Positions 15,347 through 32,000 of a stretch of 32,000 nt of DNA are shown here, piece by piece. Source of the DNA: Dickeya dadantii NCPPB 898 (GTDB taxonomy: Bacteria; Pseudomonadota; Gammaproteobacteria; Enterobacterales; Enterobacteriaceae); the NCBI RefSeq assembly GCF_000406145.1, contig NZ_CM001976.1, forward strand, positions 1,982,161 through 2,014,160, written 5' to 3'. Within the stretch, counting starts at the first letter, position 1. Each line of letters opens with the position of its first letter. Below the pieces are notes generated by a model. It was not told the origin of the DNA, ran no database searches, and saw only the letters and a program-made list of their open reading frames with translations. Position numbers and translations under genes: made by a program.

Positions 15347-15361
15347 TAATGGGCGCTGCTG

Positions 15362-15670: not shown

Positions 15671-15684
15671 TGTGATGCTCATCG

Positions 15685-15725: not shown

Positions 15726-15732
15726 GGTGACG

Positions 15733-16573: not shown

Positions 16574-16783
16574 TCAAATTATGCTTGTTTTGAAATCTTG
16601 AGCGTCTTGGTTTGCATCGGTTTTCAGGGCCAGGATCAGACGAAGCGCTTTACTTTCATCGATGTGGAAATGAGCTATTAATGGGATAGGCGCTAAACCC
16701 TTCACCGCATCGACCTCTTTATCCTTTTGTCGGTAGCAGAAATGGTGAAGGGTGTTATCAGCGTGAAAACCGTTAGTCATCAA
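16574..16783 (-). CDS. Hypothetical small protein
   Basis: 69 codons. The start overlaps the upstream DUF1304 gene stop by 4 nt (ATGA), which suggests translational coupling. I recognise no family. Confidence 0.45.
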   Translation of the reverse strand: MMTNGFHADNTLHHFCYRQKDKEVDAVKGLAPIPLIAHFHIDESKALRLILALKTDANQDAQDFKTSII

Positions 16784-17130
16784 CGAAAAAACAGGGCGAT
16801 TAACGCAGTCGATGCCGGTATCGCCTGAACGTAAAGTATTTTCCTGCTGGCCGTCACTGCACCAAAAATCCCGGCAATCAACACGCAGACCAGAAAAAAG
16901 ACAGTGACCTGAATTCCGCTTTCACCCAGCCATAATCCCCAAAGTAAACCTGCCGCCAGAAAGCCGTTATACAGCCCTTGATTTGCCGCTAACGTGCGGG
17001 TGCTGCGCGCAAAATCAGCATGGAGATTAAATGCTTTTCGACCGATTTCCGTATCCCACAAAAACATTTCGAGCACAAGAATATAGAGATGTATAACAGC
17101 AATAACTGCGACAAGGATATTGGCTAACAC
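16780..17130 (-). CDS. DUF1304-family membrane protein
   Basis: HLYILVLEMFLWDT...AANQGLYNGFLAAGLLWG matches the DUF1304 pattern as I recall it. There are four TM helices. Confidence 0.8.
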   Translation of the reverse strand: MLANILVAVIAVIHLYILVLEMFLWDTEIGRKAFNLHADFARSTRTLAANQGLYNGFLAAGLLWGLWLGESGIQVTVFFLVCVLIAGIFGAVTASRKILYVQAIPASTALIALFFR

Positions 17131-17276
17131 GGGGACCCCTAATGGATGAGAATAAGTACAGGGAAGTATAGATAATTATGGTAGGTGAGGCATTGGGTCT
17201 GAGCTAATACAGCTCAGTGAATCCAGATTGAACGCCTGGTATGCCGTAACACATACCAGGCGTTTTCATTTCAGAC

Positions 17277-18305
17277 TTATTCGTCGCGCCAGCCCATCGC
17301 CGGAGCAACATGTTTCAGTATGGACTCGATAACGTGCACGTTGTAATCCACGCCCAGTTGATTCGGCACGGTTAGCAATAATGTATCCGCTTCGGCAATC
17401 GCTTCATCCTGTTTCAGTTGTTCGATCAGCTTGCTCGGCTCTGCGGCATAGCTGCGCCCGAAAATCGCGCGGGTTTTCTCATCAAGGAAACCGACCTTAT
17501 CGCTGTCGTCACGGCTTGAACCGAAATACATCCGGTCACGTTCATCCATCAGGGCAAAAATGCTGCGGCTGACCGAGACACGTGGCGTGCGTGTATGCCC
17601 GGCTTCTGCCCAAGCTTCGCGATACGCACGGATCTGTTTTGCCTGCTGAATGTGGAAAGGTTCGCCTGTTTCATCGTCTTTCAACGTGGAACTTTGTAGG
17701 TTCATGCCCAGTTTTGCAGCCCACATCGCGGTCGCATTCGAACCAGCGCCCCACCAGATGCGGTCGCGTAAACCGTCTGAATGAGGCTCAGGGCGCAACA
17801 GGCCCGGCGGGTTCGGGAACATTGGCTGTGGATTGGGTTTCGCAAAGCCTTCTCCACGTAACACGTCCAGCAGCACTTCGGTATGACGGCGCGCCATATC
17901 AGATTCGGTTTCCCCTTCGGAAGGGACGTAACCAAAATAGCGCCAGCCATCAATCACCTGCTCCGGGGAGCCACGGCTGATACCAAGCTGTAAACGCCCG
18001 CCGGAGATCAAGTCCGCTGCGCCCGCATCCTCCGCCATATACAGCGGATTTTCATAGCGCATATCGATAACACCGGTGCCGATTTCAATACGCCGGGTTT
18101 TCGCGCCTATCGCCGCCAGTAGGGGGAACGGTGAACTGAGCTGGCGGGCAAAGTGATGCACCCTGAAATAGGCTCCGTCTGCCCCCAGTTCTTCGGCGGC
18201 AACAGCCAGATCGATGGATTGCAGCAGTGCGTCAGCGGCCGAACGGGTTCCCGATTGCGGAGACGGCGTCCAGTGACCAAATGACAAAAATCCGATCTTT
18301 TTCAT
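17277..18305 (-). CDS. LLM-class (luciferase-like) flavin-dependent oxidoreductase
   Basis: 342 aa. The N-terminus MKKIGFLSFGHW and the motifs GADGAYFRVHHF and GGRLQLGISRG are typical of the luciferase-like monooxygenase family. Confidence 0.85.
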   Translation of the reverse strand: MKKIGFLSFGHWTPSPQSGTRSAADALLQSIDLAVAAEELGADGAYFRVHHFARQLSSPFPLLAAIGAKTRRIEIGTGVIDMRYENPLYMAEDAGAADLISGGRLQLGISRGSPEQVIDGWRYFGYVPSEGETESDMARRHTEVLLDVLRGEGFAKPNPQPMFPNPPGLLRPEPHSDGLRDRIWWGAGSNATAMWAAKLGMNLQSSTLKDDETGEPFHIQQAKQIRAYREAWAEAGHTRTPRVSVSRSIFALMDERDRMYFGSSRDDSDKVGFLDEKTRAIFGRSYAAEPSKLIEQLKQDEAIAEADTLLLTVPNQLGVDYNVHVIESILKHVAPAMGWRDE

Positions 18306-18594
18306 GACGTGTTTATCCTGGTTTTCAGGGGAATTATCAGCAGGCGGGCACTATTCATGATGAAGCAAACCTGCGCCTGCCTTGGGTTATCCCTACTTTA
18401 CGCATTACCTGATGAGATTAAATATCAGTTGTTTAACATAATGCATCAAATAAATTGATTGAGAGGGGAGGGACGTGCTCTGGATATGCCAATAGGTAAG
18501 GTCTGAATGGCGTTGTTTCGGTATCACAGGGATGAAGTTGTCATGACAAACACATGCGATTTGGCATATATTAAATTTCGTGCTGGAGGATTTC

Positions 18595-18927
18595 ATGACT
18601 ACCTTGACCCCGCTGGAACTGTTTAAGGCGTTATCTGATGAAACCCGCCTTTCGATCGTGCTGTTGCTGCGAGAAGTGGATGAGTTGTGCGTGTGTGATT
18701 TGTGTGAGGGGTTACAGGAACCTCAACCCAAGATCTCCCGTCATCTTGCACTGTTGCGCGATGCCGGGCTGTTAGTGGATCGCCGCCAGGGTAAATGGAT
18801 TCATTATCGGCTTTCACCTCATGTCCCTGCCTGGTGCGCCACGATTATTGAGCAGGCATGGTTGAGTCAGCGTCACACCGTTGCTGGCGTGATAAACAGA
18901 CTTGGGCATCAGCGGGTTTGCGAATAA
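18595..18927 (+). CDS. arsR: Arsenic-responsive transcriptional repressor ArsR
   Basis: The ELCVCDLC metal-binding motif and QPKISRHLALLRDAGLL HTH are closely similar to E. coli/R773 ArsR. The ATG at 18595 is preferred over the listed GTG at 18580. Confidence 0.9.
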   Translation: MTTLTPLELFKALSDETRLSIVLLLREVDELCVCDLCEGLQEPQPKISRHLALLRDAGLLVDRRQGKWIHYRLSPHVPAWCATIIEQAWLSQRHTVAGVINRLGHQRVCE

Positions 18928-18979
18928 AAAATTTATCCTTATATATTTGTTATTTCATATATGTTGATGGGAGCATGGC

Positions 18980-20264
18980 ATGTTACTGGCTGGAGCCGTT
19001 TTTATACTGACGTTAATCCTGGTCATTTGGCAACCTCGTGGGTTGGGCATCGGCTGGAGTGCATCGTTTGGGGCTGCGCTGGCTTGGGCAACCGGGGTGA
19101 TTCACTTAGAAGATATTCCCGTGGTATGGCACATCGTCTGGAATGCGACTACCACGTTCATTGCGGTGATTATTATCAGCTTACTGCTCGATAAGTCGGG
19201 TTTTTTTGAGTGGGCTGCGCTACATATGGCGCGCAGAGGTCAAGGGCGGGGCAAACGCTTATTTACTTTGATGATTGTGTTGGGGGCATTGGTCGCCGCG
19301 CTGTTTGCCAACGATGGCGCCGCGCTGATCCTGACGCCGATTGTGGTGGCGATGCTGGCAGCGCTGGGTTTTAGCCGCGCCAGCAACGCTGGCATTCGTG
19401 ATGGCGGCTGGCTTTATTGCTGATACCTCCAGTTTGCCGCTGGTGGTGTCGAATTTGGTTAATATCGTCACGGCGGATTACTTCCGCATTGATTTCAATA
19501 CCTATGCGCGGGTGATGATCCCGGTGGATATCGTTGCCGTCGTTGCCACATTGGGTGTGTTGCACCTGTTTTTTCGCCGGGAAATTCCAGTCGATTATGA
19601 TTTGGGCAAGCTTACAGATCCCGCTGCGGCGATTCGCGATAGACAGACATTCAACGCAGGATGGCTTGTTCTGGCACTGTTGTTAAGCGGCTTTTTCGTG
19701 CTGGAACCGCTGGGCGTACCCATCAGTCTGGTTGCGACTGTGGCAGCGGTAATTCTTTGGCTGGTAGCCCGAAGCGGGCAAATCATTGATACCGGCAGTG
19801 TACTGCGTGGCGCACCCTGGCAGATTGTGGTGTTTTCACTGGGCATGTATCTGGTGGTGTATGGTCTGCGCAATGCCGGGCTCACGGATTATCTGACACG
19901 CGTGTTGAATGATTTTGCCGCGCAGGGACTATGGACTGCGACAATCGGCACCGGTTTTCTCACCGCATTATTGTCATCGGTGATGAACAATATGCCGACG
20001 GTCCTTATCGGCGCGCTGTCGATTGACGCGTCTTCGGCTGATGGCGTAATCCGTGAGGCCATGATTTACGCCAACATTATCGGCTGTGATTTAGGGCCCA
20101 AACTGACACCCATCGGCAGCCTTGCCACGTTGCTGTGGTTACATGTGCTGGCGCAGAAAGAGATTCGTATCAGTTGGGGATATTACTTCCGCGTTGGCGT
20201 CGTGATGACGTTACCGGTGCTGTTCGTGACGCTGGCGGCGCTGGCGCTGCGTCTTTCTATCTGA
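18980..20264 (+). pseudogene. arsB: Arsenite efflux pump ArsB, split by a +1 frameshift near 19382
   Basis: ORFs 18980-19423 and 19341-20264 together reproduce full-length ArsB. The N-terminal part reads [28 protein letters not shown]...LGFSRA, and the second frame continues [25 protein letters not shown]. The frames join if one nucleotide is removed in GCCGCGCCAGCA (19375-19385). Confidence 0.85.
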
Positions 20265-20307
20265 TGGATGTGGCGGCTCACCGCAGGCTTTTAAAGAGAA
20301 TTAGGCA

Positions 20308-20739
20308 ATGACAGAGATTACCATCTACCATAATCCGGCGTGCGGCACATCCCGTAATACACTGGCGTTAATTCGTAATAGTGGTGTTGAACCAACCATC
20401 ATTCACTACCTTGAAACCCCACCCTCCAGAGAGGAACTTATTGGGTTGATTATCGCGATGGGCATTAGCCCACGTATGCTGTTACGCCAAAACGTCGAGC
20501 CTTATAGCGAGTTAGGGCTGGCCGAAGATAAATTCAGCGATGAACAATTGCTCACCTTTATGCTGACTCACCCCATACTGATTAATCGCCCGATTGTCGT
20601 CACGCTGCTCGGCACCCGGCTATGCCGCCCGTCAGAAGTGGTGCTGGATATCCTGCCTGATGCACAGCAAGGCGCGTTCGTTAAAGAGGATGGAGAACAC
20701 GTCGTCGATAAATTAGGCAAGAGAATAAAATTGAATTGA
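20308..20739 (+). CDS. arsC: Arsenate reductase, glutaredoxin-coupled type
   Basis: ITIYHNPACGTSRNTL...HPILINRPIVVT..GTRLCRPSEVVLDIL is near-identical in pattern to E. coli/R773 ArsC. Confidence 0.95.
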   Translation: MTEITIYHNPACGTSRNTLALIRNSGVEPTIIHYLETPPSREELIGLIIAMGISPRMLLRQNVEPYSELGLAEDKFSDEQLLTFMLTHPILINRPIVVTLLGTRLCRPSEVVLDILPDAQQGAFVKEDGEHVVDKLGKRIKLN

Positions 20740-20993
20740 AATCATAAAGGCACAGAAAATGGGCGATAAAACTTATTTGAAATCTATGTGTTAATGCTGG
20801 GATGTACCGCATCCCGGCACGTCTGATTCTGGCGTGTAGCCATGCACGCTCTTTGTTTCATGGCAGCGTCCTCCTCGTTTAAGGGTCGCGTTGGATTGAC
20901 CCATTGAACTCTCGGCGTGAACCGAACGTACTAGCCATAAAGTGTGTAGATTCAGCCAGAATACATTGTAAATTAAGACTAAATCAAAATGCG

Positions 20994-21683
20994 CTAATCA
21001 ATGGGGAGCAGGTCAGCCAGAAGTGCTCTTGCTTCCTGCAAGTGCTTATGGAACCGGGTAGCGTAGTCCCCGGCGACGGCCGTCTGAATACTAGGGCGCT
21101 TAGCCAGTGCACGACGCCAATCCGCCACTCGATTTAGCCCATCAAACACAGGGTGGCTGGACTCAACGTTAAGTATGTCGAAGTAGCGAAAAACTGGAGC
21201 TATGGCAATGTCTACCATACTGAGCTCTTCTCCGGCGAAATAAGGGCCATCCGATATTTCGGCATTAAATCGTTCCAGTTTTCCTCTTAAAGCTGCGGAT
21301 TTGGCAAGGGCTGTCCGCGGGTCGGAGGCGTTCAGAAATCCCCATGCATCCGACAGCGTGGCAGATACGAATTCAATCCATGCGCGGTGTTGTGCTCGGA
21401 GTAACGCATTCATTGGATGCAGTGCTGGTTCGGGGTACACATCCTCGAGATATTCGCAGATTGCGATGCTCTCGAATAGAACGGACTCACCCCCATGGCT
21501 GTCTGGAACTTTGAGCAACGGAACCTTGCCCGTTGGCGATATCGCAAAAAACCAGTCTGGCTTGTTTTGAAGATCAACATTAATCCTCTGAAAGGGAATG
21601 CCTTTTTCGAGCAACACGATGGCAACTCGCTGAACAAATGGGCATAAATGGTGGCTGATGAGTGTCAACTGTGATTGGGACAT
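20994..21683 (-). CDS. Glutathione S-transferase family protein (Cys-type, CPF active-site motif)
   Basis: The thioredoxin-like N-domain carries HHLCPFVQRV and GKVPLL...ESIAICEYL. It is followed by a helical C-domain. The ATG at 21683 is preferred over the listed GTG at 21719. Confidence 0.8.
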   Translation of the reverse strand: MSQSQLTLISHHLCPFVQRVAIVLLEKGIPFQRINVDLQNKPDWFFAISPTGKVPLLKVPDSHGGESVLFESIAICEYLEDVYPEPALHPMNALLRAQHRAWIEFVSATLSDAWGFLNASDPRTALAKSAALRGKLERFNAEISDGPYFAGEELSMVDIAIAPVFRYFDILNVESSHPVFDGLNRVADWRRALAKRPSIQTAVAGDYATRFHKHLQEARALLADLLPID

Positions 21684-21829
21684 GGGAAGACGCCTAATAA
21701 AATGATAGCCCACCGCCACGAATGGGAGCGGGCCGTGTGGAAGATAAGGTTTATGACTTCAGGAAATCCTGGGTCGTCATTGCATTACCGTAAAACGGCA
21801 AGATACGTTTCTGCTGCTATCGCTGGTCG

Positions 21830-22576
21830 CTAGAGCGAGCGACCGCCATCGACGATAATTTCCGAGCCGACCGTCCATCGTGATTCGTCTGAAGCCAGGT
21901 ACAGCACAGCCTTGGCCACCTCCTCGGGCGTACCGAAGCGGCCGAGTGGGATGGTTGAAATGATGTCTTTGTTGACCTGCTCGCGATAGGCATCGGGAAT
22001 TCCGAGCTTATCGTAAAGCGGCGTTTCGATCGGGCCAGGGCTGACAGCATTGACGCGAATACCGCGTGGGAGCAATTCGGTTGAAAGCGTCTTCGCCATG
22101 TTCAGGAACGCAGCCTTTGTCGCCCCATAGACCGATGAATTTGCTGCGCCGACGTGTGCATTGACCGATGTATTAAGCACTACTGATGCGGGGTTTGCGA
22201 AGAGCGGTAGCAATGCCTGCATCAGGAAGTACGGCCCCTTGACGTTAATGTCGAAGGAGTGATCGAACATTTCTTCCGTCCACTGTTCGATTGGCAACCA
22301 AACGGATACACCCGCATTGAGAAAGGCGATATCGAGCTGACTATAGTGAGCCTGGACGGTATGCGCCAGTTCCTTCTGCGCTGCAATACTGGCTGAATCA
22401 GCGCGCAGCACCGGAACCTCACTCCCCAGTTCCGCCTGGGCGTTTGCGATTGACTCCGGATTGACTCCTGTAACAATCACGCGCGCGCCTTCAGCGAGAA
22501 ACTGTTTGGCTGTTTCAAGGCCGATGCCGCTGGTGCCACCGGTAATGAGGGTGCGTTTGCCTTGCAATCTGGACAT
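21830..22576 (-). CDS. SDR-family oxidoreductase
   Basis: Motifs [11 protein letters not shown] and YGATKAA. The ATG at 22576 has an AAGGAG SD. The listed start at 22642 is an upstream extension. Confidence 0.9.
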
Positions 22577-22716
22577 GACATTCTCCTTTACGTTATTGGC
22601 GATCAGTCGTTGTGCTGACCTGCCTGGTGGAGAACTATGCACTCATGCCTAAATTTTGATAAGATTGCCTTTTTAGATATATTTCATGCCTATTTTGCAT
22701 AAATCAGAGGTTATGA

Positions 22717-23652
22717 ATGGATCGATTACTGCTGATGACATGCTTTGTCCGGGTTGTTGAGACAGGAAGCTTCTCGGCTGCAGGGCGCGCCTTGGGTTTA
22801 GGGCAGCCCAAAGTCAGCCGTCATGTAGCGGCGCTGGAAGATCATTTACAAACCAGACTGCTTCACCGATCAACGCGTAAGCTTGCCCTCACGCCGGAGG
22901 GAGAGCGCTACTATGCAGAAGCCCGACGTATTCTTGACGCCGTGGAAGAATCAGAGTCGTCGTTCAGAGAGAACGTCGCCCCGTCCGGATTGTTACGTGT
23001 CGCATGCCCGACCGCGCTAGCCCATACATTCGTGGTGCCGCATGTACCCGCCTTCTTAGAACGATATCCAGAGTTGACGCTCGAGCTCCAGATCAGTGAC
23101 CGCTACGTAAATCTGGTCGACGAGGGGGCTGAACTGGCGATCCGGATCGGGCATTTAGAAGACAGCACATTGCGTGCCCGGCACCTGGGGTTGTTCGAAC
23201 GCGTATGCGTCGCCAGCAAGGGATACCTGGCTAAACGCGGAATCCCCAATACTCCCGATGATCTAAGAATGCACGATTGTTTGGTCTACACTCTGTTGTC
23301 GACAGGCGCCACATGGCGTTTCCGAAATGCCGATATTCCCGTTTCTGGCAGGCTTAGGGTCAACTCACCGGAGGCCATACGAGAATGTGTCAATGCGGGA
23401 CAAGGGATCGCTCAGGGGCCAGAATGGCTATACGAGGAAGGGCTGAAAAATGGCAATTTGCAGTTGTTGCTGAGGGACTACACGGCTCCGCCTGTGCCCA
23501 TTCAAGTCCTTTACGTTGCCGCCCGGCTTCTTCCCAAGCGGGCCATCGTATTCATGGATTTCATCGCCGAGATATTTGCAAAAACTCCAGCACTGAACAA
23601 CGGAAGAGATCAAGATGCTTGCGCGGTGGTACGCACTGAAAATGGCGTATGA
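22717..23652 (+). CDS. LysR-family transcriptional regulator, divergent from the SDR gene
   Basis: N-terminal HTH FVRVVETGSFSAAGRALGLGQPKVSRHVAALEDHL followed by a LysR substrate-binding domain. Confidence 0.9.
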   Translation: MDRLLLMTCFVRVVETGSFSAAGRALGLGQPKVSRHVAALEDHLQTRLLHRSTRKLALTPEGERYYAEARRILDAVEESESSFRENVAPSGLLRVACPTALAHTFVVPHVPAFLERYPELTLELQISDRYVNLVDEGAELAIRIGHLEDSTLRARHLGLFERVCVASKGYLAKRGIPNTPDDLRMHDCLVYTLLSTGATWRFRNADIPVSGRLRVNSPEAIRECVNAGQGIAQGPEWLYEEGLKNGNLQLLLRDYTAPPVPIQVLYVAARLLPKRAIVFMDFIAEIFAKTPALNNGRDQDACAVVRTENGV

Positions 23653-23711
23653 TGCTGCGTACTTTATTGCGCACCGTTTTGCTGTAACCCGTGAACGGTC
23701 AGACTTACCAC

Positions 23712-23981
23712 TCACCATGTGGACGATAAATGCCAGTGGATATGGAAAATGCGTAAGATCTGAATGGTGTTGTTTTCTACACGGTAGGGGATATAGGGGA
23801 TGATGCGATAGCACCCGTTCGTGCGTCTGGAACGCGCCCCGGTCGCCCCATTGATGGCCGCTCCGGCAGGAGTTGCGTTAATCATCTGACCTCACTGACA
23901 AACTGGTCAGCTGCTTGCGGGTTATCTTGTGTAATATGGTGGCATTCGGTTGGCGGCTATGCGTCGCCATTTAATTTCCAT
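23712..23981 (-). pseudogene. Decayed orphan ParE/RelE-family toxin gene, paralog of the intact toxin at 24559-24843
   Basis: The first 15 nt (ATGGAAATTAAATGG, MEIKW) are identical to the intact toxin. Similarity then continues across three reading frames: QDNPQAADQFVSEVR*LTQLLPERPSMGRPGRVP, then THERVLSHHP, then IIPYIPYRVENNTIQILRIFH. There is an in-frame TGA. No antitoxin ORF lies upstream. Confidence 0.7.
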
Positions 23982-24146
23982 GCCACGAGAGAGGTTGAAT
24001 TTATGGTTTAAGTATTTATTTATATTGCATTAATTATAGGTTTGTTTTTTATCATATAACTAAACGTATAACTAAAACGAAAAGTCATCCTGAAAAATAG
24101 TCTGCGCATGACATTAGGGTTTCGTTTGATACGCTGATTTTTAGCC

Positions 24147-24500
24147 CTAGATGCGTTGTACATTTAATTTTGCTTTACGACGCTCCAACACCATCATTTT
24201 TCGGGTGTGTTGCCACAGAATCCCATCGAGCAACATAAACTCACGCCATTCTGCTGTACCTAAAGAAAGAGATTTGTGCATCAACTCACCCACACGTTCG
24301 GCAAGGAGCAGGTTTCTTACTCGTAGCAATTGCAACGGCGTGAATCGCCCATTATTACCAACCAAAGGAAAGAATGCCTGGCGGCTGCGTTCCCCATGTT
24401 TCACGGCATTGGTGTTACCAACGGGAGCACCTGCGCCGATACGTTTCCCGCCCCAGCCGGACGATCTTGATTGTTGGTTATGTTTTTTGTTGTCTTTCAT
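24147..24500 (-). CDS. Hypothetical protein with a GAPxGNxNAxKHG motif, third gene of the toxin-antitoxin operon
   Basis: It lies 20-60 nt downstream of the toxin stop on the same strand. The motif GAGAPVGNTNAVKHG resembles the motif I associate with YjcR/terminase-small-subunit-like proteins. The start is uncertain: ATG at 24500 or TTG at 24539, neither with a clear SD. Confidence 0.45.
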   Translation of the reverse strand: MKDNKKHNQQSRSSGWGGKRIGAGAPVGNTNAVKHGERSRQAFFPLVGNNGRFTPLQLLRVRNLLLAERVGELMHKSLSLGTAEWREFMLLDGILWQHTRKMMVLERRKAKLNVQRI

Positions 24501-24558
24501 GGCTGCGTGGCGATTAGTTAGTGGATGTATGTTCGTCAAAATTCAGAAAGGCAGTTGT

Positions 24559-24843
24559 TCACCATTTCGCGGGTAAACGCCTGTGCGTATGAAAGACGCG
24601 CAGAATCTGGATCATATTATCTTTCACTTGGTAGGGTATGATGTAGGGATAGTGCGTTAACACTAGCTCACGCGTTCCTGGCACACGGCCTGGCCTTCCC
24701 ATTGCTGGCTGTTGCGGTAGTAATTCCGTTAACCGTTGGACTTCATCTACGAACTGGCTGGCAGCCAGTGGATCGTCTTGCGCGATATAGAGGTACTCGG
24801 CTTCCAAATTGGCCGCGGCTTTACGCAGCCATTTAATTTCCAT
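24559..24843 (-). CDS. Type II toxin, RelE/ParE family
   Basis: 94 aa. MEIKW...GRPGRVPGTRELVLTHYPYIIPYQVKDNMIQILRVFHTHR is the characteristic ParE/RelE pattern. The start overlaps the antitoxin end by 11 nt. Confidence 0.85.
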   Translation of the reverse strand: MEIKWLRKAAANLEAEYLYIAQDDPLAASQFVDEVQRLTELLPQQPAMGRPGRVPGTRELVLTHYPYIIPYQVKDNMIQILRVFHTHRRLPAKW

Positions 24844-25078
24844 GTCTTACCGTACCTAACTTTTTAAACAGATTGTTCATCTCATCTGATGAGACAAAAT
24901 CACCCGCATCGGCTTCTTTAATAGCCTGCTCAATCTCTGCTATCTGCCAGGCTTCCCGCGCAAGATAGTCTTCAATAGCTTGTCCGGCCAGAAAAGAGCG
25001 GGTACGTCCCGTAGCTTTAGCCAAGGCATCAAGCTGCGCGGCTGTTTCATCATTCAATCGAACGGACATAACGCCCAT
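24833..25078 (-). CDS. Type II antitoxin, ribbon-helix-helix (CopG/ParD-like)
   Basis: 81 aa. The N-terminal RHH reads MSVRLNDETAAQLDALAKATGRTRSFLAGQAIEDYL. A GAGGTG SD lies 6 nt upstream of the ATG. The gene sits immediately upstream of the toxin and overlaps it. Confidence 0.8.
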   Translation of the reverse strand: MGVMSVRLNDETAAQLDALAKATGRTRSFLAGQAIEDYLAREAWQIAEIEQAIKEADAGDFVSSDEMNNLFKKLGTVRHGN

Positions 25079-25085
25079 GTTAACA

Positions 25086-25124
25086 CCTCACTACATTGTA
25101 TGTTTTGTATACATTGTAGTGAGG
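25086..25124. promoter_or_regulatory. Probable autoregulatory operator of the TA operon
   Basis: Inverted repeat CCTCACTACATTGTAT-N-ATACATTGTAGTGAGG. The outer 10 bp are perfect, and TACATTGTA occurs twice. It lies 8-46 nt upstream of the antitoxin ATG. Confidence 0.5.
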
Positions 25125-25236
25125 TGAGGGGAGAGAGACAAGTGGTTACTCAATGGTATTTGGGATGTTGCTCTCTATGCAGGTATGGATTAGCCTCTGG
25201 AGTCTGTTAAGAGTTGTGAGTTCAACCGATGGATGC

Positions 25237-25261
25237 AACACCTTCGCCTGAAGGTGTTTTT
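25237..25261 (+). terminator. Terminator-like hairpin between the cassette and the TA promoter
   Basis: The 9-bp stem AACACCTTC-GCCT-GAAGGTGTT is followed by a T5 run on the + strand. The T-tract orientation fits a + strand terminator, although the neighbouring genes are on the - strand. Confidence 0.4.
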
Positions 25262-25307
25262 ATCCAAACATAGTATCGCTAACTTAATTTATTTTCTAAG
25301 CGGAGTA

Positions 25308-26549
25308 TTAATCATTTTTTTCTTCATTTTGAATAACAACTCCTTTATTTCTTAAGAATTCATCAACCTTTCTGTTTAACTCGACATCTTCATCTTCAAA
25401 GCTAGCATCAGTATCATCTAATTCGGATATTAAATTACTTTTAAATGTTTCAAAATCGCGCTTAAACTCCCAGTTCTGAAATTGTTCGGAGGCATAAACA
25501 ATAACCCTGTCAATTATTCTTGCTCCGATCGATAATGTTTTCGCACTTGATACAGCTAAAGAATGCACAAGTGAAAAATATTGAGGATCTGATAATGATT
25601 GCGTCGATGCTGTTATGTCAAGAAATTTATGAGGAGATACAACCCATCCGGCATGCGATGCTTCTTTGCTAACTTTTATCATGGTATTGTCAAAAGTTAA
25701 GATTATCCAGTGAGCATTCGAATCAGTTATTTCGTTCTGGGTGAATTGCAAAGCCCACAAATCGTGATCCATAAGATAAGGCGATTTAGTCTGGTTGCGT
25801 GACTCCAGATAAGTATTATATTCATGCTCGAATTGGGCGCAATCTCCATTTTGATAAAATGGAATATCTATAAATTGAACGCCTGATTTACTTAATATAG
25901 ATTGAATGTCAGTCATAACAAATCTTACCCAATCCTTCCAGTTATCCCGTTCAATAAGGACGGCGGAACTGAAAGTTTTTAAATAATCAAAAATATTATC
26001 AGGAACTGTTACTCCTTGTAATTTTAGTGCGTAATAATTAGCGATGAAGGCATTTTTAGAATATTGTAGCTCTTCGGGGTTTTCATAGTCCTGAAGAAAT
26101 GAATACTTCCGAGCCATTAACAAATGAGAGGCGCATTCATTAATGTAAAAGAATGGGATAAACGGCATAGCATCTAGTTTTAATGCTCGTTTTATGGCTT
26201 TTTTGCTAATATTATAAAAACCATCGATATTTCCATTGTAAAGGCAAGAACATATCCAGTGGATAGCTACTGTAGGCTCGACTAAGATATTAAAATCACT
26301 CCACCTACTTGCTCCGAGAGCTTTTGCAGAGGTTATTGTATTTTTACCCTCTAAAGCTACATATATAGATGCTCTAGCAAGTTTAATTATGAGAGGATGA
26401 TTCGATGCGCTTTCAAGTATAGCCAGAGCAGCCTCATTAGCTTTTTTATTTGTTAGGCCTGATTTATTTTTTATATAGTCTCTTATGCTTATTTTTGTCT
26501 CTATTTCTGTGATTGAAAAATGACTCAATACTAATCTTAGCCTTAACAT
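25308..26549 (-). CDS. Hypothetical protein B of the AT-rich cassette, no recognisable domain
   Basis: A long ORF in very AT-rich DNA, where random ORFs should be short. It is co-directional with gene A. The only canonical starts are the ATG at 26549 and the TTG at 26591, and both lie inside gene A in another frame. The acidic C-terminal tail reads DDTDASFEDEDVELN. Confidence 0.6.
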   Translation of the reverse strand: MLRLRLVLSHFSITEIETKISIRDYIKNKSGLTNKKANEAALAILESASNHPLIIKLARASIYVALEGKNTITSAKALGASRWSDFNILVEPTVAIHWICSCLYNGNIDGFYNISKKAIKRALKLDAMPFIPFFYINECASHLLMARKYSFLQDYENPEELQYSKNAFIANYYALKLQGVTVPDNIFDYLKTFSSAVLIERDNWKDWVRFVMTDIQSILSKSGVQFIDIPFYQNGDCAQFEHEYNTYLESRNQTKSPYLMDHDLWALQFTQNEITDSNAHWIILTFDNTMIKVSKEASHAGWVVSPHKFLDITASTQSLSDPQYFSLVHSLAVSSAKTLSIGARIIDRVIVYASEQFQNWEFKRDFETFKSNLISELDDTDASFEDEDVELNRKVDEFLRNKGVVIQNEEKND

Positions 26550-27459
26550 CTGACAAAAGTTCAAGTTGGTTTGATATGTAAGAGTCAGCAATGTAAATGC
26601 TTATTTCCTTTGACTCTTCCAAAGTCCAGTTAACTTGAAAATCTTCCCGCATAATATCTATTTGGACTGCGGCGAGATCACTTAACTCTTTCTCGTAGAT
26701 TCTTTTTCTGGCTTCGATATCTTGACTTGAACCTTGCGAAAGTCCGATTAATCCTTCGTCATTCCGCTGTAATAGGGATTTTGAGAATAAAGCACCGATA
26801 CGTTTCCTTAAGTATGATTCTTTATCTGACTCAACATTAAGAAATTTGATGACATTTCCTACCAATTCATCTTCTTGTAGGTTTTTAGAGTCAGATAAAA
26901 TAAAAAGTATTGTATCATCATATACACCATCCCGCATGTATTTGACTTCATTTGACATCACAGTATAACCATGAAGCGCCATTTCTCTATAATCTGGATT
27001 GCTTTGAAATGATCTAGGAAGAGGATAATTGGTTTCATCCAAAAATTTATTGAGAAGATTTCCGTCGAGCAAAAACTCGGCAATGTGCCTAGCACTAAAA
27101 AATGAAACTTGAATTTCTAGCTCTTCATTATATTTCCTTTCAAACTTTCTGCACTCAACCTCACTAACGTTGTTTGTTGTGAAAAAATAAAATCTTCTGG
27201 CTGAAAGTTTTTCAACTGCCTTCAAGATATCACTACCTAGTTTTTGAGGGATTTTTTCTTTTTGAGTAGTGAGTTGGTAAATCGTGTTAGTCCTAATCCC
27301 ATCATTACTTATATTTATAAAATCAGCGCCGCCATCATTAGAACCATCAACATTTATTGCGTTGATTTTAAAATAGTCTTTAAGGACTATTTTACAAGCC
27401 GCATCAAAGAAATTCTTACTCAACCCGCGAATATGGTTAACTAAAGTATCGTGGTCCAT
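26464..27459 (-). CDS. Protein A of the AT-rich cassette: N-terminal Mrr-like restriction-endonuclease (PD-(D/E)xK) domain, putative winged helix, helical C-terminus
   Basis: ATG with a GAGGG SD. Residues about 17-125 (FFDAACKIVLKDYF..NVDGSNDGGADF..IYQLTTQKEK..RRFYFFTTNNVS..ARHIAEFLL) follow the Mrr_cat pattern xLLxxxGy..V....DGGhD....hQxK....hhhhTT..hs....A. Residues about 180-240 (ILFILSDSKNLQEDELVGNVIKFL...LLQRNDEGLIGLS) look like a wHTH. Confidence 0.7.
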   Translation of the reverse strand: MDHDTLVNHIRGLSKNFFDAACKIVLKDYFKINAINVDGSNDGGADFINISNDGIRTNTIYQLTTQKEKIPQKLGSDILKAVEKLSARRFYFFTTNNVSEVECRKFERKYNEELEIQVSFFSARHIAEFLLDGNLLNKFLDETNYPLPRSFQSNPDYREMALHGYTVMSNEVKYMRDGVYDDTILFILSDSKNLQEDELVGNVIKFLNVESDKESYLRKRIGALFSKSLLQRNDEGLIGLSQGSSQDIEARKRIYEKELSDLAAVQIDIMREDFQVNWTLEESKEISIYIADSYISNQLELLSDVKAKISIESFFNHRNRDKNKHKRLYKK

Positions 27460-27531
27460 GCGTGCCCTCTTCTATGAAGTTAATAAAACGAGCTTGAAGA
27501 TATTCACTGCTTTGTTTGAAAGTATTTGGTT

Positions 27532-27560
27532 ATTATAGGACTAATATATCATTATTTTAA
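27532..27560 (-). promoter_or_regulatory. Candidate sigma70 promoter for the AT-rich cassette
   Basis: On the - strand, TTAAAA is separated from TATAAT by 17 nt. The -10 element lies about 70 nt upstream of the gene A ATG. Confidence 0.3.
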
Positions 27561-27965
27561 GCTTGGATGTGTTCTAAACGCCCACTTTGGCACATAGCAG
27601 ACCGTCGAGCTTAGCTGCTCTCCAGTAGTGATTGACTCTGTCATAGATCGAAATTACTCCCAATCTATCATTTCAAGCACACTCCCCACACCATCCCCCG
27701 CCGCGCCGACCACGAAAAAACCTTAGCATTTCGATACATGCGTACCGACCAAAAAATTGATTTCAAATTGAATAAAATGAGGCGTGGCGCGGGTTGAAGC
27801 GAGGTACGCAGTTCGCACAGCAATGCGTACAATTGCGTATGAACTGCGAACCACATTGCGAATTTTACCGTAGCTGTTCAGTGTCGTTTTGCGCACTTTC
27901 TTGCTGGGAATGCTTTTAACCCATCATGATTTTTGTGTGCGCAAATTCTTATAGATAAGCAAAAG

Positions 27966-28224
27966 TAGGTCGGTTCGGTAGATTCAGTCGGTTCACGTAG
28001 TCAACTGATTGATAAATAGGGTGATTATTTTCAGAATTGAACCGACCTATGGGTAGGTTCACGCGGTGTGAAAGTCGGTTCATCAAGCCAGCCAGAAAAA
28101 GGGCGTTTGGTTAGGTCGGTTCAAAATGGCTAAAGTCGGTTCAGGGTCGGTTCACTATTCAAATAAAAATAACCATAAATCAATGTATTAAAATAATGAA
28201 CCGACTGAACCTACCGAACCGACC
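27966..28224. repeat. Iteron field, probable origin of replication of the island
   Basis: At least 10 copies of GTCGGTTCA or close variants (GGTCGGTTCGG, GTAGGTTCA) occur in both orientations. Forward copies are at 27968, 27987, 28053, 28074, 28115, 28135 and 28146. Inverted copies are at 28038, 28197, 28206 and 28214. An AT-rich stretch (28158-28198) lies inside the field, which sits directly downstream of the primase-helicase gene. Confidence 0.7.
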
Positions 28225-28245
28225 TTATTTTACCTTACGCGTGAT

Positions 28246-30852
28246 TTACTCTTCTTCGTCGTCGAGTGTCATGAGCACCACAAAGCGCGGCTGCTTACCG
28301 TCAATGCGCAGTGATTTACGTGTAATGCCTTTGGCGGGTTTATCCAGCATTCCGGCATCGGCCAGCACCTGCGCAAACGCGGCGGCATTGGCACCAGCGG
28401 CAATTTCGTTATTGAACACGGCGGGGAAGGTGTGAAACACCAGCGTATCGGCTCCTGGCTTTTTCACCCGATACCCCGCCAGATCCTTGATGGGTAAATC
28501 GCGTGGATCTGGATTGGGATGCGGTAAATAACGGCTGTAGCCAAACTGGTGCAAAAAGGCATCAGCCTGTTCTACCCAAGCTTTGGCCTCACGGTTGCCC
28601 ATGCCAAATTCATTTACCCAGGCATAGAAGCTATGCTGTAACGCATCGTGGCATTCTTGCGCTGTCCAACCAGTTAAAGAGGCTGAGAGTAATAAAGCCG
28701 CCTCTAATACGGCAAAACGTGACGCCACCCGCCGCACTTGTTCGCTGGCATCATCGGGCAAGAGTGACAACCAGCGTCGCTCTGTTTCGCGGTAGGTTGC
28801 CAGCGCATTTTCTTTCTGGCTGGCAAGGTAGGCGATCCACTCTCGACCGACCGCGCCATAATGGGCGTTGCTGGCATCACGGATCGCGTCAGCATGGGCT
28901 TTGCCATCCTGATAGCTATGAAATACCGTCGCTTTGGTGATCGGGACATTCAGCAGGCGTACCAATTGACCGGCATTCACTCGCCCACCGTCAGCGCGGA
29001 TATAGCTTTCCAGATCGATCTCGCCGGTACTGAATGCCATTGCTCGCCAGCGTTTTAACTCTCGGTTGCCGCCTTCTCTGGCTCCCTGAATCTTACCCAC
29101 GCCGTTAAACAGCGCATAGGCGGCATCGGCCACGGCTTTGCGATTGCTGCCTTGCCCGATTTCATCCAACGGCATAAAGCCGTCATTGTGGGCGGCGGCT
29201 TCGTTCACCAGCCCCAACGCGGTGGAATACCACGTTAGTTTAAGCGCATTAGGATCGCCATAGACAGAAGAGGCGATATTGCCGGTGGTGGTTTTGCCCG
29301 CAGATGAACCGCCAAACAGGTGGACGCCGAACCCGTCCGCGTTTGCCAGCCCGATAAGCGGTGCGGCAAAGGCGCAGGCGATCCCCAGCATCATGGAGGG
29401 ATTACCCTGTGCCAGCGCTGCGACGTTTTCACGCCAGCTTTGCGCCGTTCCGCTGGTGGTATAACCTTTGGCGGCACCTGATTTACCGTTGAACAAGACG
29501 GGAATACTTGGTGTACCGATAACGGAACCATCCGGCATCAGGTATGCGCCATGCTGCCAGCCGGTCGCGCTGGCGATTGCCCAGCGACAACCCGCATGAC
29601 TGCGACACACGTGATCGGCCAGTATTGCCCGTAACCCGCCTTTGGCCGTGACCGCCAGCCCACCTGCACGCAATCGCGCCCAGCCTTCACGTTCTCCAAT
29701 ATCTCGCATTGGAATGGCTTCGGTACGGGGTTGGCTCTCACCGCTTGGTGTCCAGCTTAAAACCAGATAACGCTCTGACTCATCTGATCCGATACCCGCT
29801 ACCGTAATAGGGTCAGACAGCCAGCTTTCACGCTCGATAATGTCGCCGCTGTCATGGTCAGTCTTCGGCTCTACCCAATACAGCCCGCCATGACGAATGG
29901 CTGCGTAAGGTTTTAAGGGGGAATTGGAAGACGGCAGCGGCTTTTGTCCTGGTTGATAAAGTGAGGCAGCAAAGGCCAATATGGATACCGCCGCGCCATG
30001 TTGTTGGTAGTAATCATTCCAGTCGGCTTTTTCAGTGGTGGGCGGGAGCGCGACCCAACCGTTTACCGCCAGTGCCGCTTTTTCAGCCGCGATTTTTCCC
30101 GTGTTGTTACCATCGGGTTTACGATCATTATCCGCAGCAAGGATGATTTTGGCATCCGGCCAGACAGCACGGCAAGACCGCGCAACGTGAATCAGATTCC
30201 CGCTATCTAATGCGCTGATAGCGACACCTTGCATCAGTAACGATGCCGTAATTGCCGTGGCGTAACCTTCGGCAATGATCACTGTGTCCGTGTGTTCAGG
30301 TAGGGTATTAACGGGAATGAATGCACCTTTCTTGCGGCTACCGGCAATCAACTTTTTCTCGCCATTAGGTTTGATTAGCTGTGCGCCGGTGGGAGTGCTA
30401 CCCATGTTTTGCAGCACCAGCAACAGAGAACCATCATCTAAGAGTAGTGAGGATCGTTGCAGCCCCTTATTCAGCAGATAGGCAGATTGGCCGGATACCG
30501 CTTTCGACACCAGCGAATTCACCCGTTTGATAATCGTGCGATTATCAGGCTTCTCACTGGCGGGCGTAACGACCGGCAACGGAAGCGCCAGCACCTCAGC
30601 GACCTGTTCCGCTGCTTGTCTCGCGCCACACTTATTCACTTTCATCACCAGATTTAGTCCGGTTCCTGCACCGCAGTGAGAACAAAAATAGGTGCCTCGA
30701 CCTTCTTTATCGTCAAAACGGTAGCGGGTATTCCCGCCACAGTTGGGACATTCACTTTCCTGCCGATTGGTCGGGATGCCTAACCGCTGCAAAATCCCCT
30801 CCCAATGGTCGTTGGCTTTTGTCCGCACGTCTTGAATAAACGTGTTGCTCAT
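28246..30852 (-). CDS. Phage/satellite-type primase-helicase (zinc ribbon, Toprim, DUF927 P-loop helicase; functionally P4 alpha-like)
   Basis: Zinc ribbon CPNCGG...FCSHCG. Toprim motifs IIAEGYATA and LAADNDRK. Walker A GGSSAGKTT. 868 aa. The start is coupled (ATGA-type overlap) to the upstream small gene. Confidence 0.9.
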   Translation of the reverse strand: MSNTFIQDVRTKANDHWEGILQRLGIPTNRQESECPNCGGNTRYRFDDKEGRGTYFCSHCGAGTGLNLVMKVNKCGARQAAEQVAEVLALPLPVVTPASEKPDNRTIIKRVNSLVSKAVSGQSAYLLNKGLQRSSLLLDDGSLLLVLQNMGSTPTGAQLIKPNGEKKLIAGSRKKGAFIPVNTLPEHTDTVIIAEGYATAITASLLMQGVAISALDSGNLIHVARSCRAVWPDAKIILAADNDRKPDGNNTGKIAAEKAALAVNGWVALPPTTEKADWNDYYQQHGAAVSILAFAASLYQPGQKPLPSSNSPLKPYAAIRHGGLYWVEPKTDHDSGDIIERESWLSDPITVAGIGSDESERYLVLSWTPSGESQPRTEAIPMRDIGEREGWARLRAGGLAVTAKGGLRAILADHVCRSHAGCRWAIASATGWQHGAYLMPDGSVIGTPSIPVLFNGKSGAAKGYTTSGTAQSWRENVAALAQGNPSMMLGIACAFAAPLIGLANADGFGVHLFGGSSAGKTTTGNIASSVYGDPNALKLTWYSTALGLVNEAAAHNDGFMPLDEIGQGSNRKAVADAAYALFNGVGKIQGAREGGNRELKRWRAMAFSTGEIDLESYIRADGGRVNAGQLVRLLNVPITKATVFHSYQDGKAHADAIRDASNAHYGAVGREWIAYLASQKENALATYRETERRWLSLLPDDASEQVRRVASRFAVLEAALLLSASLTGWTAQECHDALQHSFYAWVNEFGMGNREAKAWVEQADAFLHQFGYSRYLPHPNPDPRDLPIKDLAGYRVKKPGADTLVFHTFPAVFNNEIAAGANAAAFAQVLADAGMLDKPAKGITRKSLRIDGKQPRFVVLMTLDDEEE

Positions 30853-31016
30853 GCGGCCTCGTCCTCCTGCGCTCGGTGGAGCGCATCAAGCCGCTCGGCA
30901 AGAATGAACATCAGGATCTCTTTTGCCTGCGGCTCCCTTAACTCCATGATGGCATAAGCCAACGCACGACACTGATCGATCAGTTCTTCCTGCTCCAGCG
31001 GCGTGTTATCAAACAT
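30849..31016 (-). CDS. Small hypothetical protein (55 aa) translationally coupled to the primase gene
   Basis: The ATG at 31016 is preceded by a strong SD (CAGGAGGTG). The stop overlaps the primase ATG. It is the only supported part of the listed 275-aa ORF. Confidence 0.6.
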   Translation of the reverse strand: MFDNTPLEQEELIDQCRALAYAIMELREPQAKEILMFILAERLDALHRAQEDEAA

Positions 31017-31209
31017 GGCGCACCTCCTGGGCGGGAAGACGAGCAGCGAAAGCGAATGTGAAACATGGAGACAGCATTTGCCGTGCTTCCTGCTCTGAAT
31101 AGGATTCAACGGATAGGCGACAAAACGTTTTTGCCTGCGAAGAGTAGGGCAGTACCAGAAAGCGATACTGAAATTTAAGGCGAGTTTGGGTAGACTGTGA
31201 ATCAGCCAT
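31009..31209 (-). CDS. Small island protein (66 aa), possibly Icd-like
   Basis: An AAAGGAG SD lies 7 nt upstream of the ATG. The 3-prime end overlaps the next gene start by 8 nt. The pattern FQYRFLVL...SVESYSEQEARQML...FAARLP resembles the Icd-like small proteins of P4-type islands as I remember them. This assignment is uncertain. Confidence 0.55.
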   Translation of the reverse strand: MADSQSTQTRLKFQYRFLVLPYSSQAKTFCRLSVESYSEQEARQMLSPCFTFAFAARLPAQEVRHV

Positions 31210-31300
31210 GACGTTACTCCTTTTAACGCTGTGGTCAGAAGCCCGGTATGTGTTGCTGCACTGCCGGGCTTCGTTATGTTAACCTTGAATTCAATCAAGG

Positions 31301-31333
31301 TGTGCGCACAGGATAGTTCTTGGTGTGCGCACA
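31301..31333. promoter_or_regulatory. Twin palindromic operators in the divergent control region
   Basis: The perfect 10-bp palindrome TGTGCGCACA occurs twice (31301-31310 and 31324-31333, each preceded by GG). The centres are 23 bp apart. The sites lie between the divergent starts at 31209 (-) and 31399 (+). Confidence 0.5.
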
Positions 31334-31398
31334 CGTCAAGCGCTTTAAATTTCAATTTTTCAGGCAGAGTACCGTCAGTGTCTTTAACGGAGTTAGGC

Positions 31399-31590
31399 AT
31401 GGCTACAGGCAATAACAATAGTAAATCCACTAAAAAGGGAATCCGTTTCCCACACGAACTTATTGATGAAATTGATGCCAGTGTAGCGCGTGAAAAAGTA
31501 GACAATCCCAACGCTAATTTTTCTGCGTGGGTATTGGATGCCTGCGGACGTAAGTTAGAGGCGGAAAAAGACGATAAATCAAAACCGTGA
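31399..31590 (+). CDS. Small DNA-binding-like protein (63 aa), YlcI/YnfO (DUF3950)-like
   Basis: MATGNNNSKSTKKGIRFPHELIDEIDA...NFSAWVLDACGRKL resembles prophage YlcI/YnfO-family proteins as I recall them and has an RHH-like N-terminus. The ATG at 31399 is preferred over the listed GTG at 31231, which would run through the operator region. Confidence 0.65.
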   Translation: MATGNNNSKSTKKGIRFPHELIDEIDASVAREKVDNPNANFSAWVLDACGRKLEAEKDDKSKP

Positions 31591-31729
31591 TTTGAGCGTT
31601 TTTCTAAATAGCTGATGTGCTGATTTTTGGCGTAACAATGCCCGTTCCAGCCAGCGCCAGATTTTTGGATCATCATATTTTTTGATTCCGATATGCCGCT
31701 ATCGCGGCAATAAAAATGGATGTGTTGGC

Positions 31730-31945
31730 TTATGCGGTTTCGGTTTGCTGGTCACGTTCGGCAATGCGTTGCCTCAACCAGTCGCTAACTTCATCCTCGA
31801 ACCAGCCTACGCGCCGTAAGCCAACCCGAAACCCTTTGGGGAATTCTCCGGCATTGATCATTTCCTGAAAGCTGCTGTCCGAGCTAACGCGCAGAATGGC
31901 TTTCACTTCTTTCTTTAACAGGATTTTTCTGTCTAACAGGTTCAT
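31730..31945 (-). CDS. alpA: AlpA-family phage/island transcriptional regulator (excisionase-like HTH)
   Basis: LLKKEVKAILRVSSDSSFQEMINAGEFPKGFRVGLRRVGWFEDEVSDWL is the AlpA/Phage_AlpA pattern. The ATG at 31945 has a GAGGT SD 8 nt upstream. Confidence 0.85.
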   Translation of the reverse strand: MNLLDRKILLKKEVKAILRVSSDSSFQEMINAGEFPKGFRVGLRRVGWFEDEVSDWLRQRIAERDQQTETA

Positions 31946-32000
31946 AGCGATATACCTCATCAATGACCGGTCGTATCCGGTCGATGAGGCTATTCAATAA

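Follow-up and report, generated by a model that had tools for sequence, protein, structure and literature searches.

The 32,000-nucleotide (nt) window analysed here comes from the forward strand of Dickeya dadantii NCPPB 898 (NZ_CM001976.1, positions 1,982,161 to 2,014,160) and contains an AT-rich block, positions 25308-27459, inside a genomic island. Two open reading frames (ORFs), A and B, lie on the minus strand of the block. The RefSeq annotation of this genome lists two proteins for them, WP_038911054.1 (331 amino acids, aa) and WP_152490681.1 (406 aa). The original prediction was a two-component anti-phage system, with A as an Mrr-like nuclease and B as its orphan partner. Both ORFs are present as described, but they belong to one gene and not two. 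ORF A encodes the N-terminal part and ORF B the C-terminal part of a single 716-aa polypeptide, which we regard as practically certain. The frame shift, the two apparent ORFs and the two hypothetical-protein annotations arise because of one extra A at 26489/26490 (Table 1). The foreign composition of the block agrees with the earlier claim. Its G+C content is 34.6%, compared with 55% for the neighbouring primase gene and 52% for the whole window, and the two 60-nt samples used in the prediction recount exactly to 13 and 40 G/C.

Removal of one A at the junction joins A and B without a gap into 716 aa, and all residue numbers given here refer to this repaired protein. In the DNA alignment the junction of the relatives in Brenneria izbisi (locus L006) and Phytobacter massiliensis (L007) reads AGAAAC-AGC, and the window reads AAAAATAAGC. 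The 90%-identity cluster of fragment B also holds a 716-aa D. dadantii protein, WP_107768273.1, and the same island is present at its locus in strain DSM 18020 (CP023467; L030). A blastn comparison of window positions 15308-32000 with CP023467 aligns 16,693 nt with no mismatches and one gap, which is the extra A, and the repaired translation has the same sequence as WP_107768273.1. With one genome per species in GTDB, relatives occur at 24 loci; 22 of these have a single ORF of 701-727 aa with an ATG start, and the other two are cut off by contig ends. The B. izbisi (90% identity) and P. massiliensis (89%) genes are both exactly 716 codons long. All six copies on IMG/VR viral contigs have an intact ORF of 714-727 aa, and the Klebsiella copy is likewise one fused ORF. 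A search with B finds metagenomic proteins of 641-673 aa that have an A-like start (MDQETLTNHI...) and continue into B; the repaired protein aligns with them without a gap over the junction. Clustered at 50% identity, the family found by an exhaustive profile search comprises 333 clusters, with a length of 690-735 aa for most full-length members.

A genuine two-gene defence system, in which the Mrr-like nuclease A is accompanied by a separately translated partner or sensor B, is extremely improbable in light of these results. The two RefSeq entries agree with such a system, and B could in principle start at TTG 26528 or ATG 26549 and be coupled to A. However, both of these candidate starts are within ORF A and have no good Shine-Dalgarno sequence, and the split requires exactly one extra base. 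The two ORFs overlap by 128 nt, and ORF B has no ATG downstream of the ORF A stop. No intact separate pair of A-like and B-like genes is found among the 22 complete GTDB loci, 6 viral contigs, DSM 18020 and Klebsiella. Every intact relative has the fusion, including the otherwise identical D. dadantii genome. Linkage of A and B homologues in other genomes had been named beforehand as a check, and the two are always fused and never two genes. Other split copies are visibly damaged: L005 has an insertion sequence (IS) element between residues 301 and 322, L001 has a frameshift at residue 636, and in L002 the C-terminus is replaced after residue 645. The L005 split is a further point for two genes, as it falls in the same long-helix linker as the break in the window (residue 323/324). 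The short B-only proteins in the databases are products of damaged copies or of short contigs (1-3 kb). The two-component reading is refuted, and its headline claim is an artefact of one base. Proteins A and B are not biological units, whether the extra base is an error or a mutation. Programmed frameshifting or phase variation was also considered and was rejected, since the site is A versus AA with no long tract and all relatives are in frame. As a separate observation, the damage in L001, L005 and L002, which are metagenomic copies, is independent and fits a costly, easily lost gene; assembly errors are possible.

The extra A is likely a sequencing error, probably of the 454 type. The alternative is a real frameshift, by which the gene would be a recently inactivated pseudogene in this strain and the locus functionless here. 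This seems unlikely, would not conflict with the single-gene defence reading and concerns this copy alone. Such a loss might follow from a costly or toxic nuclease, and defence and toxin genes are often lost by such inactivation. The independent damage in the other three copies is consistent with a real loss, as is the position of the A to AA change outside of any long homopolymer. However, there are no substitutions in 16.7 kb relative to DSM 18020, which points to two assemblies of one strain or of nearly identical strains. We take DSM 18020 to be the same culture as the type strain NCPPB 898. The NCPPB 898 type-strain draft was produced by single-end 454 pyrosequencing (PMC3837183), a method whose typical errors are run-length indels. 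The ratio of nonsynonymous to synonymous substitution rates (dN/dS) against Brenneria is 0.075 upstream of the break and 0.099 downstream. The downstream value is as low as the upstream one; therefore, the distal part does not appear to be under relaxed selection or in decay.

Table 1. Coordinates of the features in the window (residue ranges are those of the repaired protein).
Feature	Position	Strand	Basis or remark
Single gene, 716-aa protein	25308..27459	minus	Split here by a 1-nt insertion
Extra base	26489..26490	minus	AAAAAT-AA-GC here; AAAAAT-A-GC in DSM 18020; AGAAAC-A-GC in Brenneria/Phytobacter
ORF A	26464..27459	minus	331 aa, ATG start; 323 native and 8 out-of-frame residues
ORF B	25308..26591	minus	Up to 427 aa from TTG; native residues 324-716 in the other frame; stop at 25308-25310
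Predicted PD-(D/E)xK restriction-endonuclease fold, Mrr-like, residues 1-135	27055..27459	minus	AF2 and Foldseek, weak Pfam
Predicted winged helix, residues ~172-240	26740..26946	minus	Three helices and a beta hairpin in the AF2 model
Predicted long helices (coiled-coil-like hairpin and helical region), residues ~242-380	26319..26736	minus	AF2 secondary structure
Predicted divergent PIN-like alpha/beta nuclease domain, residues ~385-620	25599..26306	minus	AF2, Foldseek, conservation
Predicted three long helices and acidic tail, residues ~630-716	25311..25571	minus	AF2 models; family consensus
Mobile cassette (promoter-like site, gene, hairpin)	25238..27572	minus	~2.3 kb; blastn against L006 and L007
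Sigma-70-like promoter TTAAAA-17-TATAAT, predicted	27560..27532	minus	10 of 12 consensus matches in scan; inside the mobile cassette
Shine-Dalgarno GAGGG	27465..27469	minus	5 nt upstream of the ATG at 27459; read from sequence
G+C-rich hairpin	25237..25258	minus	9-bp stem, 4-nt loop; 50 nt past the stop codon
RHH antitoxin	24833..25078	minus	Pfam RHH_1, 1.1e-6
ParE toxin	24559..24843	minus	Pfam ParE_toxin, 2.8e-19; with RHH the next cargo module downstream
Island primase/helicase (Zn ribbon, Toprim, DUF927)	28246..30852	minus	Pfam; same layout in L030; upstream neighbour of the cargo slot
22-nt att-like direct repeat, island end	24055..24076	minus	Repeat finding on L030; pattern search of the window, 1 match with 0 expected

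The repaired protein very likely has a two-nuclease architecture, judging by its structural models. The AlphaFold2 (AF2) models have a pLDDT (predicted local distance difference test) of 77 for the full length and 82 for the C-terminal 388 aa, with values above 90 in the core of the latter. The N-terminal core is alpha-beta-beta-beta-alpha-beta in the model. A Foldseek search of viral models (BFVD) has a phage 'Restriction endonuclease' as its top match (E 5.3e-4, probability 1.0), followed by several Mrr-domain proteins. In the PDB the N-terminal region matches EcoT38I, FokI and Mus81/FANCM at weak E-values. The earlier assignment of A to Mrr_cat and the PD-(D/E)xK nucleases is borne out for the fold, as predicted structure, but not at the Pfam threshold: ORF A scores 17.4 bits (E 0.005) and the repaired protein 15.8 bits against Mrr_cat (PF04471), for which the gathering threshold is 21 bits. 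A match at E <= 1 is found in three of nine relatives. Among 85 full-length members, D38, G39, D42, G43, G44, D46, Q62, K73 and D77 are conserved in 88-97% (D46 in 96% and Q62 in 95%). The DGGAD ... Q pattern noticed earlier in protein A corresponds to family-wide conserved positions, namely D42, G43, G44, D46 and Q62. The residue two positions after Q62 is T or S in 97% of members and not K, and the invariant K73 and D77 are on the following helix. In profile searches the winged helix weakly matches the WH-B domain of cullin/Cdc53 (E 0.0096 and 0.021), and this region also gives MarR-type Foldseek matches. The long helices that come next probably mediate oligomerisation.

Protein B was thought to show no motif. 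It consists mainly of a divergent PIN-like nuclease domain, an assignment made with good confidence from the AF2 model, Foldseek and conservation. The C-terminal model has an alpha/beta/alpha fold with a parallel sheet. The order of elements is beta-alpha-alpha-beta-alpha ... beta-alpha-alpha-beta-alpha-beta-alpha, with a helical insert of ~100 residues. The best Foldseek match of this model in the PDB is VapC2 (3zvk_B, E 5.8e-3, probability 1.0). PIN domains account for five of the six best matches, four VapC chains and PAE0151, with probabilities of 1.0-0.97, E-values of 5.8e-3 to 2.2e-2 and a TM-score of ~0.5 on the target. The PIN-type matches include VapC-1 (6nkl), PAE0151 (2fe1) and VapC (7vwo). 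After the best six come VapC 7vwo, Exo1, HARP RNase P and Nmd4. A 'PIN like domain' is also among the Foldseek matches of the full-length model. The whole 716-aa model has no PDB match at E <= 0.001, and the search is informative once the C-terminal part is modelled alone. In the 85 members D/E394 is conserved in 100% (D in 88%), E441, D566 and D590 each in 99%, and T588 in 95%; H445 (at least 95%), S467 and N469 are also conserved. D/E394 is at the end of beta-1 (L-D-A-S-V), and E441 and H445 are at the start of the helix after beta-2. D566 is in the helix preceding beta-4, which is followed by T588-x-D590. The conserved residues occupy PIN active-site positions in the predicted structure. 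The substrate of this site may be RNA, as for VapC, or flap or single-stranded DNA, as for FEN/Exo1; the latter is entertained because of the ~100-residue helical insert. The C-terminal tail carries a conserved TDxFLxxxGI motif in the family consensus.

The family is real, widespread and unannotated, and its domain combination is new. Pfam, NCBIfam, PADLOC and PHROGs give nothing above threshold for A, B, the repaired protein or its relatives, and Pfam has no match to ORF B. PADLOC-DB v2.0 (2023) has no component at E <= 1 for A, B or six full-length relatives, which agrees with the original statement that no named defence family could be assigned. Searches of the PDB with 9- and 85-sequence profiles yield the weak cullin winged-helix matches alone, and no solved relative of the 716-aa family was found. 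Plasmid and E. coli genome collections searched by BLAST with the cassette, and phage records searched with the protein, contain no match. A literature search by accession, domain combination and context found no named system for this family.

The gene is a self-contained low-G+C cassette which moves among three kinds of mobile element. The cassette has ~86% nucleotide identity with B. izbisi and P. massiliensis, the homology starts and ends at the two cassette boundaries, and the flanks are unrelated. The Brenneria copy is inside a conjugative element, among TraC, DUF1525, TraU and TraG_N genes and an integrase. The K. pneumoniae copy is at the end of a lambdoid prophage and adjoins an integrase fragment. 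In K. pneumoniae the family is indexed in 149 blocks of the contig collection, corresponding to well over a hundred contigs. The G+C content of the gene is 5-20 points under that of its flanks in nearly every locus. The promoter and Shine-Dalgarno sequence that had been described for the cassette are both present. The TTAAAA-17-TATAAT site is a plausible promoter of the gene as read from the sequence, and promoter-like sites in the AT-rich stretch are not above the shuffle rate (13 found versus 10.6 +/- 3.6 expected). The downstream hairpin has an RNA fold of -21.5 kcal/mol (z -2.4) and is a possible terminator; there is no U-tract after it on the same strand, and a terminator scan found none. 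Directly upstream of the Brenneria copy, in the transfer region of the integrative and conjugative element (ICE), L006:7348-9717 encodes a 789-aa HATPase_c_3 protein (GHKL/MORC-like ATPase). It has no PADLOC match and is a possible further cargo or defence gene.

The position of the cassette in the D. dadantii island is a variable cargo site, as had been suggested. A sister island, L042 (IMG/VR contig IMGVR_UViG_2900061112_000003), has a primase that is 95% identical and an AlpA that is 99% identical. Directly downstream of its primase, on the opposite strand, is a homologue of Avs2 (AVAST type 2) of at least 1352 aa (L042:11436-15494), which matches Avs2 PDB 9o4e_A at E 5e-38. It replaces both the 716-aa gene and the ParE/RHH pair; therefore, the cargo placed after the primase varies, and in the sister element this slot is occupied by a validated immune gene. 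More distant primase relatives (<=69% identity) were rejected as evidence on the slot, since they belong to other element types and are uninformative.

Known defence or toxin genes also occur near family members at several loci in other genomes. These are Thoeris, TIR and Fic genes in L002, a Shedu-like gene in L005, AbiU in L009, AbiEi/AbiEii in L020, an N6-methyltransferase in L022 and Fic in L001 and L029. BrxL, mREase_IV and PDC-S02 matches are also among the neighbours. No methyltransferase is adjacent to the gene in the window or in the DSM 18020, Brenneria and Klebsiella contexts. One N6-methyltransferase is found among 137 neighbouring proteins in 21 loci, and neither a methyltransferase nor any other partner is conserved. 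A conserved small upstream antitoxin of the VapBC type was not found across the loci. The RHH/ParE pair forms a complete module of its own, which the Brenneria and Klebsiella contexts lack. A conserved partner gene was sought by clustering 177 neighbours of 29 loci and was rejected as a candidate, since just Fic (three loci) and a 221-aa protein (three Bacteroidales loci) recur. The Fic (SoFic-like) genes are at L001:12667-13788, L002:14011-14670 and L029:12202-13188, one to three genes away; Fic is the sole neighbour family in more than one lineage, and the three loci are unrelated. In related Bacteroidales/Prevotellaceae loci the 221-aa protein (L019:9336-10001, L021:517-1182 and L023:9336-10001) stops precisely where the start codon of the family member lies. 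It has hydrophobic N-terminal segments and no Pfam match, and could be a clade-specific partner or simply conserved synteny.

One frame-split gene, encoding two-nuclease mobile cargo with a candidate role in defence, is the best explanation of the whole and is held with slightly more than even confidence. The chances appear evenly balanced for the narrower proposal that the 716-aa gene is a single-protein anti-phage or anti-mobile-element nuclease. Recognition of an invader-associated nucleic acid or cue would fall to the winged helix and the helical region. The Mrr-like site would then cut DNA, and the PIN-like site would cut RNA, or flap or single-stranded DNA. The enzyme would act like a Type IV or abortive-infection enzyme and not like a classical restriction-modification system, because it has no methyltransferase partner.

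Several results weigh against this explanation. The family has no PADLOC 2023, NCBIfam or PHROG match and no Pfam match at the curated threshold. Both nuclease assignments come mainly from predicted structure, and the Foldseek E-values are weak (PIN 5.8e-3, restriction endonuclease 5.3e-4). The N-terminal site has no canonical (D/E/Q)xK lysine; therefore, it is non-canonical and may be inactive or act in another way. There is no match to Pfam PIN families at E <= 1 in nine members and no PDB sequence-profile match to a PIN domain. Alignment of the family profile with a VapC (PF01850) alignment by hhalign gives nothing (probability 0.2%). The VapC alignment was built from a query 98% identical to Shigella VapC and is narrow (effective number of sequences, Neff, ~2). 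Given this narrow profile and the long insert, the hhalign result weakens the PIN assignment and does not exclude it. Known defence or toxin genes are within ~4 genes or 10 kb in only ~1/3 of ~27 loci as a raw fraction, and the association is suggestive. At many loci the neighbours are housekeeping genes (HSP70, SRP54, EF-Tu, capsule genes).

It is also conceivable, although quite improbable, that the intact protein is a selfish or housekeeping nuclease of mobile elements, such as a flap- or junction-processing enzyme, an addiction toxin or an anti-competitor weapon. Mobile elements carry or adjoin the gene in every case, defence neighbours are missing at many loci, and Foldseek also matches the FEN/Exo1 family and Mus81/FANCM-type nucleases. 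However, the same cassette with its own promoter-like site is found in three mechanistically unrelated kinds of element and at plain chromosomal sites; therefore, a role in the replication, packaging or transfer of one element is unlikely. The lack of a conserved antitoxin-like partner also argues against an addiction toxin or other non-immune nuclease, as does Avs2, a validated defence gene, in the equivalent slot of the sister island.

Within the preferred explanation, a candidate defence protein, a bolder proposal is tentative and somewhat doubtful. The gene would be the founder of a new single-protein immune family, in which an Mrr-type PD-(D/E)xK nuclease is joined to a PIN-like nuclease of unrelated fold via a winged helix and coiled coil. 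It would spread as a promoter-to-hairpin cassette among satellites, prophages and ICEs of Proteobacteria, Bacteroidota, Planctomycetota, Desulfobacterota and archaea, including common Klebsiella pneumoniae prophages. If true, one polypeptide that attacks both DNA and RNA without a nucleoside triphosphatase (NTPase) or partner is an unusual design. If a defence role proves true, the family also adds one more domain combination to a long list and no new principle. Following the original prediction as it stands would mean cloning a broken gene and seeking its interaction with a nonexistent partner. The unit to use is the 716-aa ORF, such as WP_107768273.1 (DSM 18020) or a Klebsiella allele. The family offers a compact and easily testable nuclease-based defence candidate, which is relevant to Klebsiella phage therapy and to soft-rot Dickeya.

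The rest of the island is consistent with the earlier view of foreign cargo beside a toxin-antitoxin module, as the ParE/RHH pair adjoins the gene in an island with integrase, AlpA and primase genes. The AlpA gene is further upstream of the primase in the window (Pfam). In DSM 18020 the island starts with the integrase, a 294-aa gene, AlpA, DUF3950, two small genes (one repressor-like) and the primase; these are followed by the 716-aa gene, RHH/ParE and a 117-aa gene, and then by a core LysR gene. The partner of the att-like repeat is at L030:3071-3092, just upstream of the integrase gene and 10.3 kb away, beyond the window. The two repeats are probably attL and attR, and their 22-nt sequence is TTTAGTTATACG[C/T]TTAGTTATA. 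No tRNA gene is found in the window, and the integrase is beyond its end.

Other observations concern the ends of the island and the surrounding DNA. Just outside of the att-like repeat, window ~23712-23982 (minus strand) contains an apparent decayed second parE. It consists of a 30-nt copy of the parE start, 87% identical and outside of the island, and a 57-aa ORF (23712..23885) whose end, ...IIPYIPYRVENNTIQILRIFHIHWHL, is similar to the C-terminus of ParE. An earlier island or a tandem integration at the same site may have left this remnant. The last gene of the island, 24147..24539 (minus strand), is a 130-aa ORF that is called as 117 aa in DSM 18020 and has a GNTNAxKHG-type motif. Its TerS-like NCBIfam match of 20.8 bits is far below the 120-bit cut-off, and it might encode a packaging-redirection (small-terminase-like) protein. 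The 275-aa ORF at 30849-31676 (minus strand) is probably not a gene; compare 31231-31590 (plus strand). At this locus, which is identical in DSM 18020, the gene calls of that genome give a repressor-like protein of 66 aa (phrog_1743), a protein of 55 aa (phrog_16030) and, on the other strand, a DUF3950 protein of 63 aa. Positions 1-2000 and 16001-16500 have a low G+C content (35-41%, compared with ~55-60% around them), which suggests further horizontally acquired DNA.

The island resembles the satellite-like islands with integrase, AlpA and primase (P4-like or 'Type C PICI', for phage-inducible chromosomal island). Like these it has a tyrosine integrase, AlpA, a DUF927-Toprim primase, small regulators and att repeats; the satellite combination of integrase, AlpA-type regulator and primase is present according to Pfam on the window and the L030 gene table. 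The difference is that psu/delta/sid or capsid-redirection genes are not recognised here. No Pfam or PHROG match in the island corresponds to psu/delta/sid, capsid-morphogenesis/Rpp-type or other capsid or packaging hijack genes. By SatelliteFinder criteria, an integrase, AlpA and primase alone make an ambiguous 'Type C PICI' (De Sousa et al. 2023, PMC10085698).

The 716-aa protein shares features with Mrr and the Type IV restriction endonucleases. These are the PD-(D/E)xK fold, the DGGxD ... Q signature, a winged helix, a stand-alone gene and no cognate methyltransferase nearby. Mrr has the winged helix first and the nuclease after it, whereas the family has the reversed order, with the nuclease N-terminal. 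The family is also below the Pfam threshold, has T/S two residues after Q and an invariant K73 on the next helix, and has ~480 further residues, including a second nuclease-like domain, without counterpart in Mrr. The C-terminal domain shares with the VapC/PIN nucleases (PF01850) the predicted alpha/beta/alpha fold and strand order, the acidic end of beta-1 (L-D-A-S-V in the family, L-D-T-N-I in VapC), E441, D566 and the T-x-D (T588, D590). Unlike VapC, it has no sequence or profile match to PIN, its ~100-residue helical insert is nearer to the FEN/Exo1 arch, and it is embedded in a 716-aa protein without a VapB-type antitoxin.

Among immune systems, Shedu (SduA) is likewise one large protein with a PD-(D/E)xK nuclease and non-catalytic helical or sensor regions, and has a patchy spread on mobile elements and defence islands with no partner gene. 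The family differs in having no DUF4263/SduA homology (PADLOC negative), an N-terminal nuclease and a second, PIN-like domain. Mrr_cat effectors occur in satellite hotspots (Rousset et al. 2022, PMC9122126). The immune proteins with such effectors (Avs/NLR-like STAND proteins and Lamassu LmuA) differ from the family, which is less than half the size of Avs2 and has no STAND/NTPase module, repeats or SMC-like partner. The 716-aa family has no homology to the Avs/NLR-like proteins, but the logic is alike: an N-terminal Mrr-type nuclease would serve as the effector, and Avs2 holds the identical cargo slot downstream of the primase in the closely related island L042.

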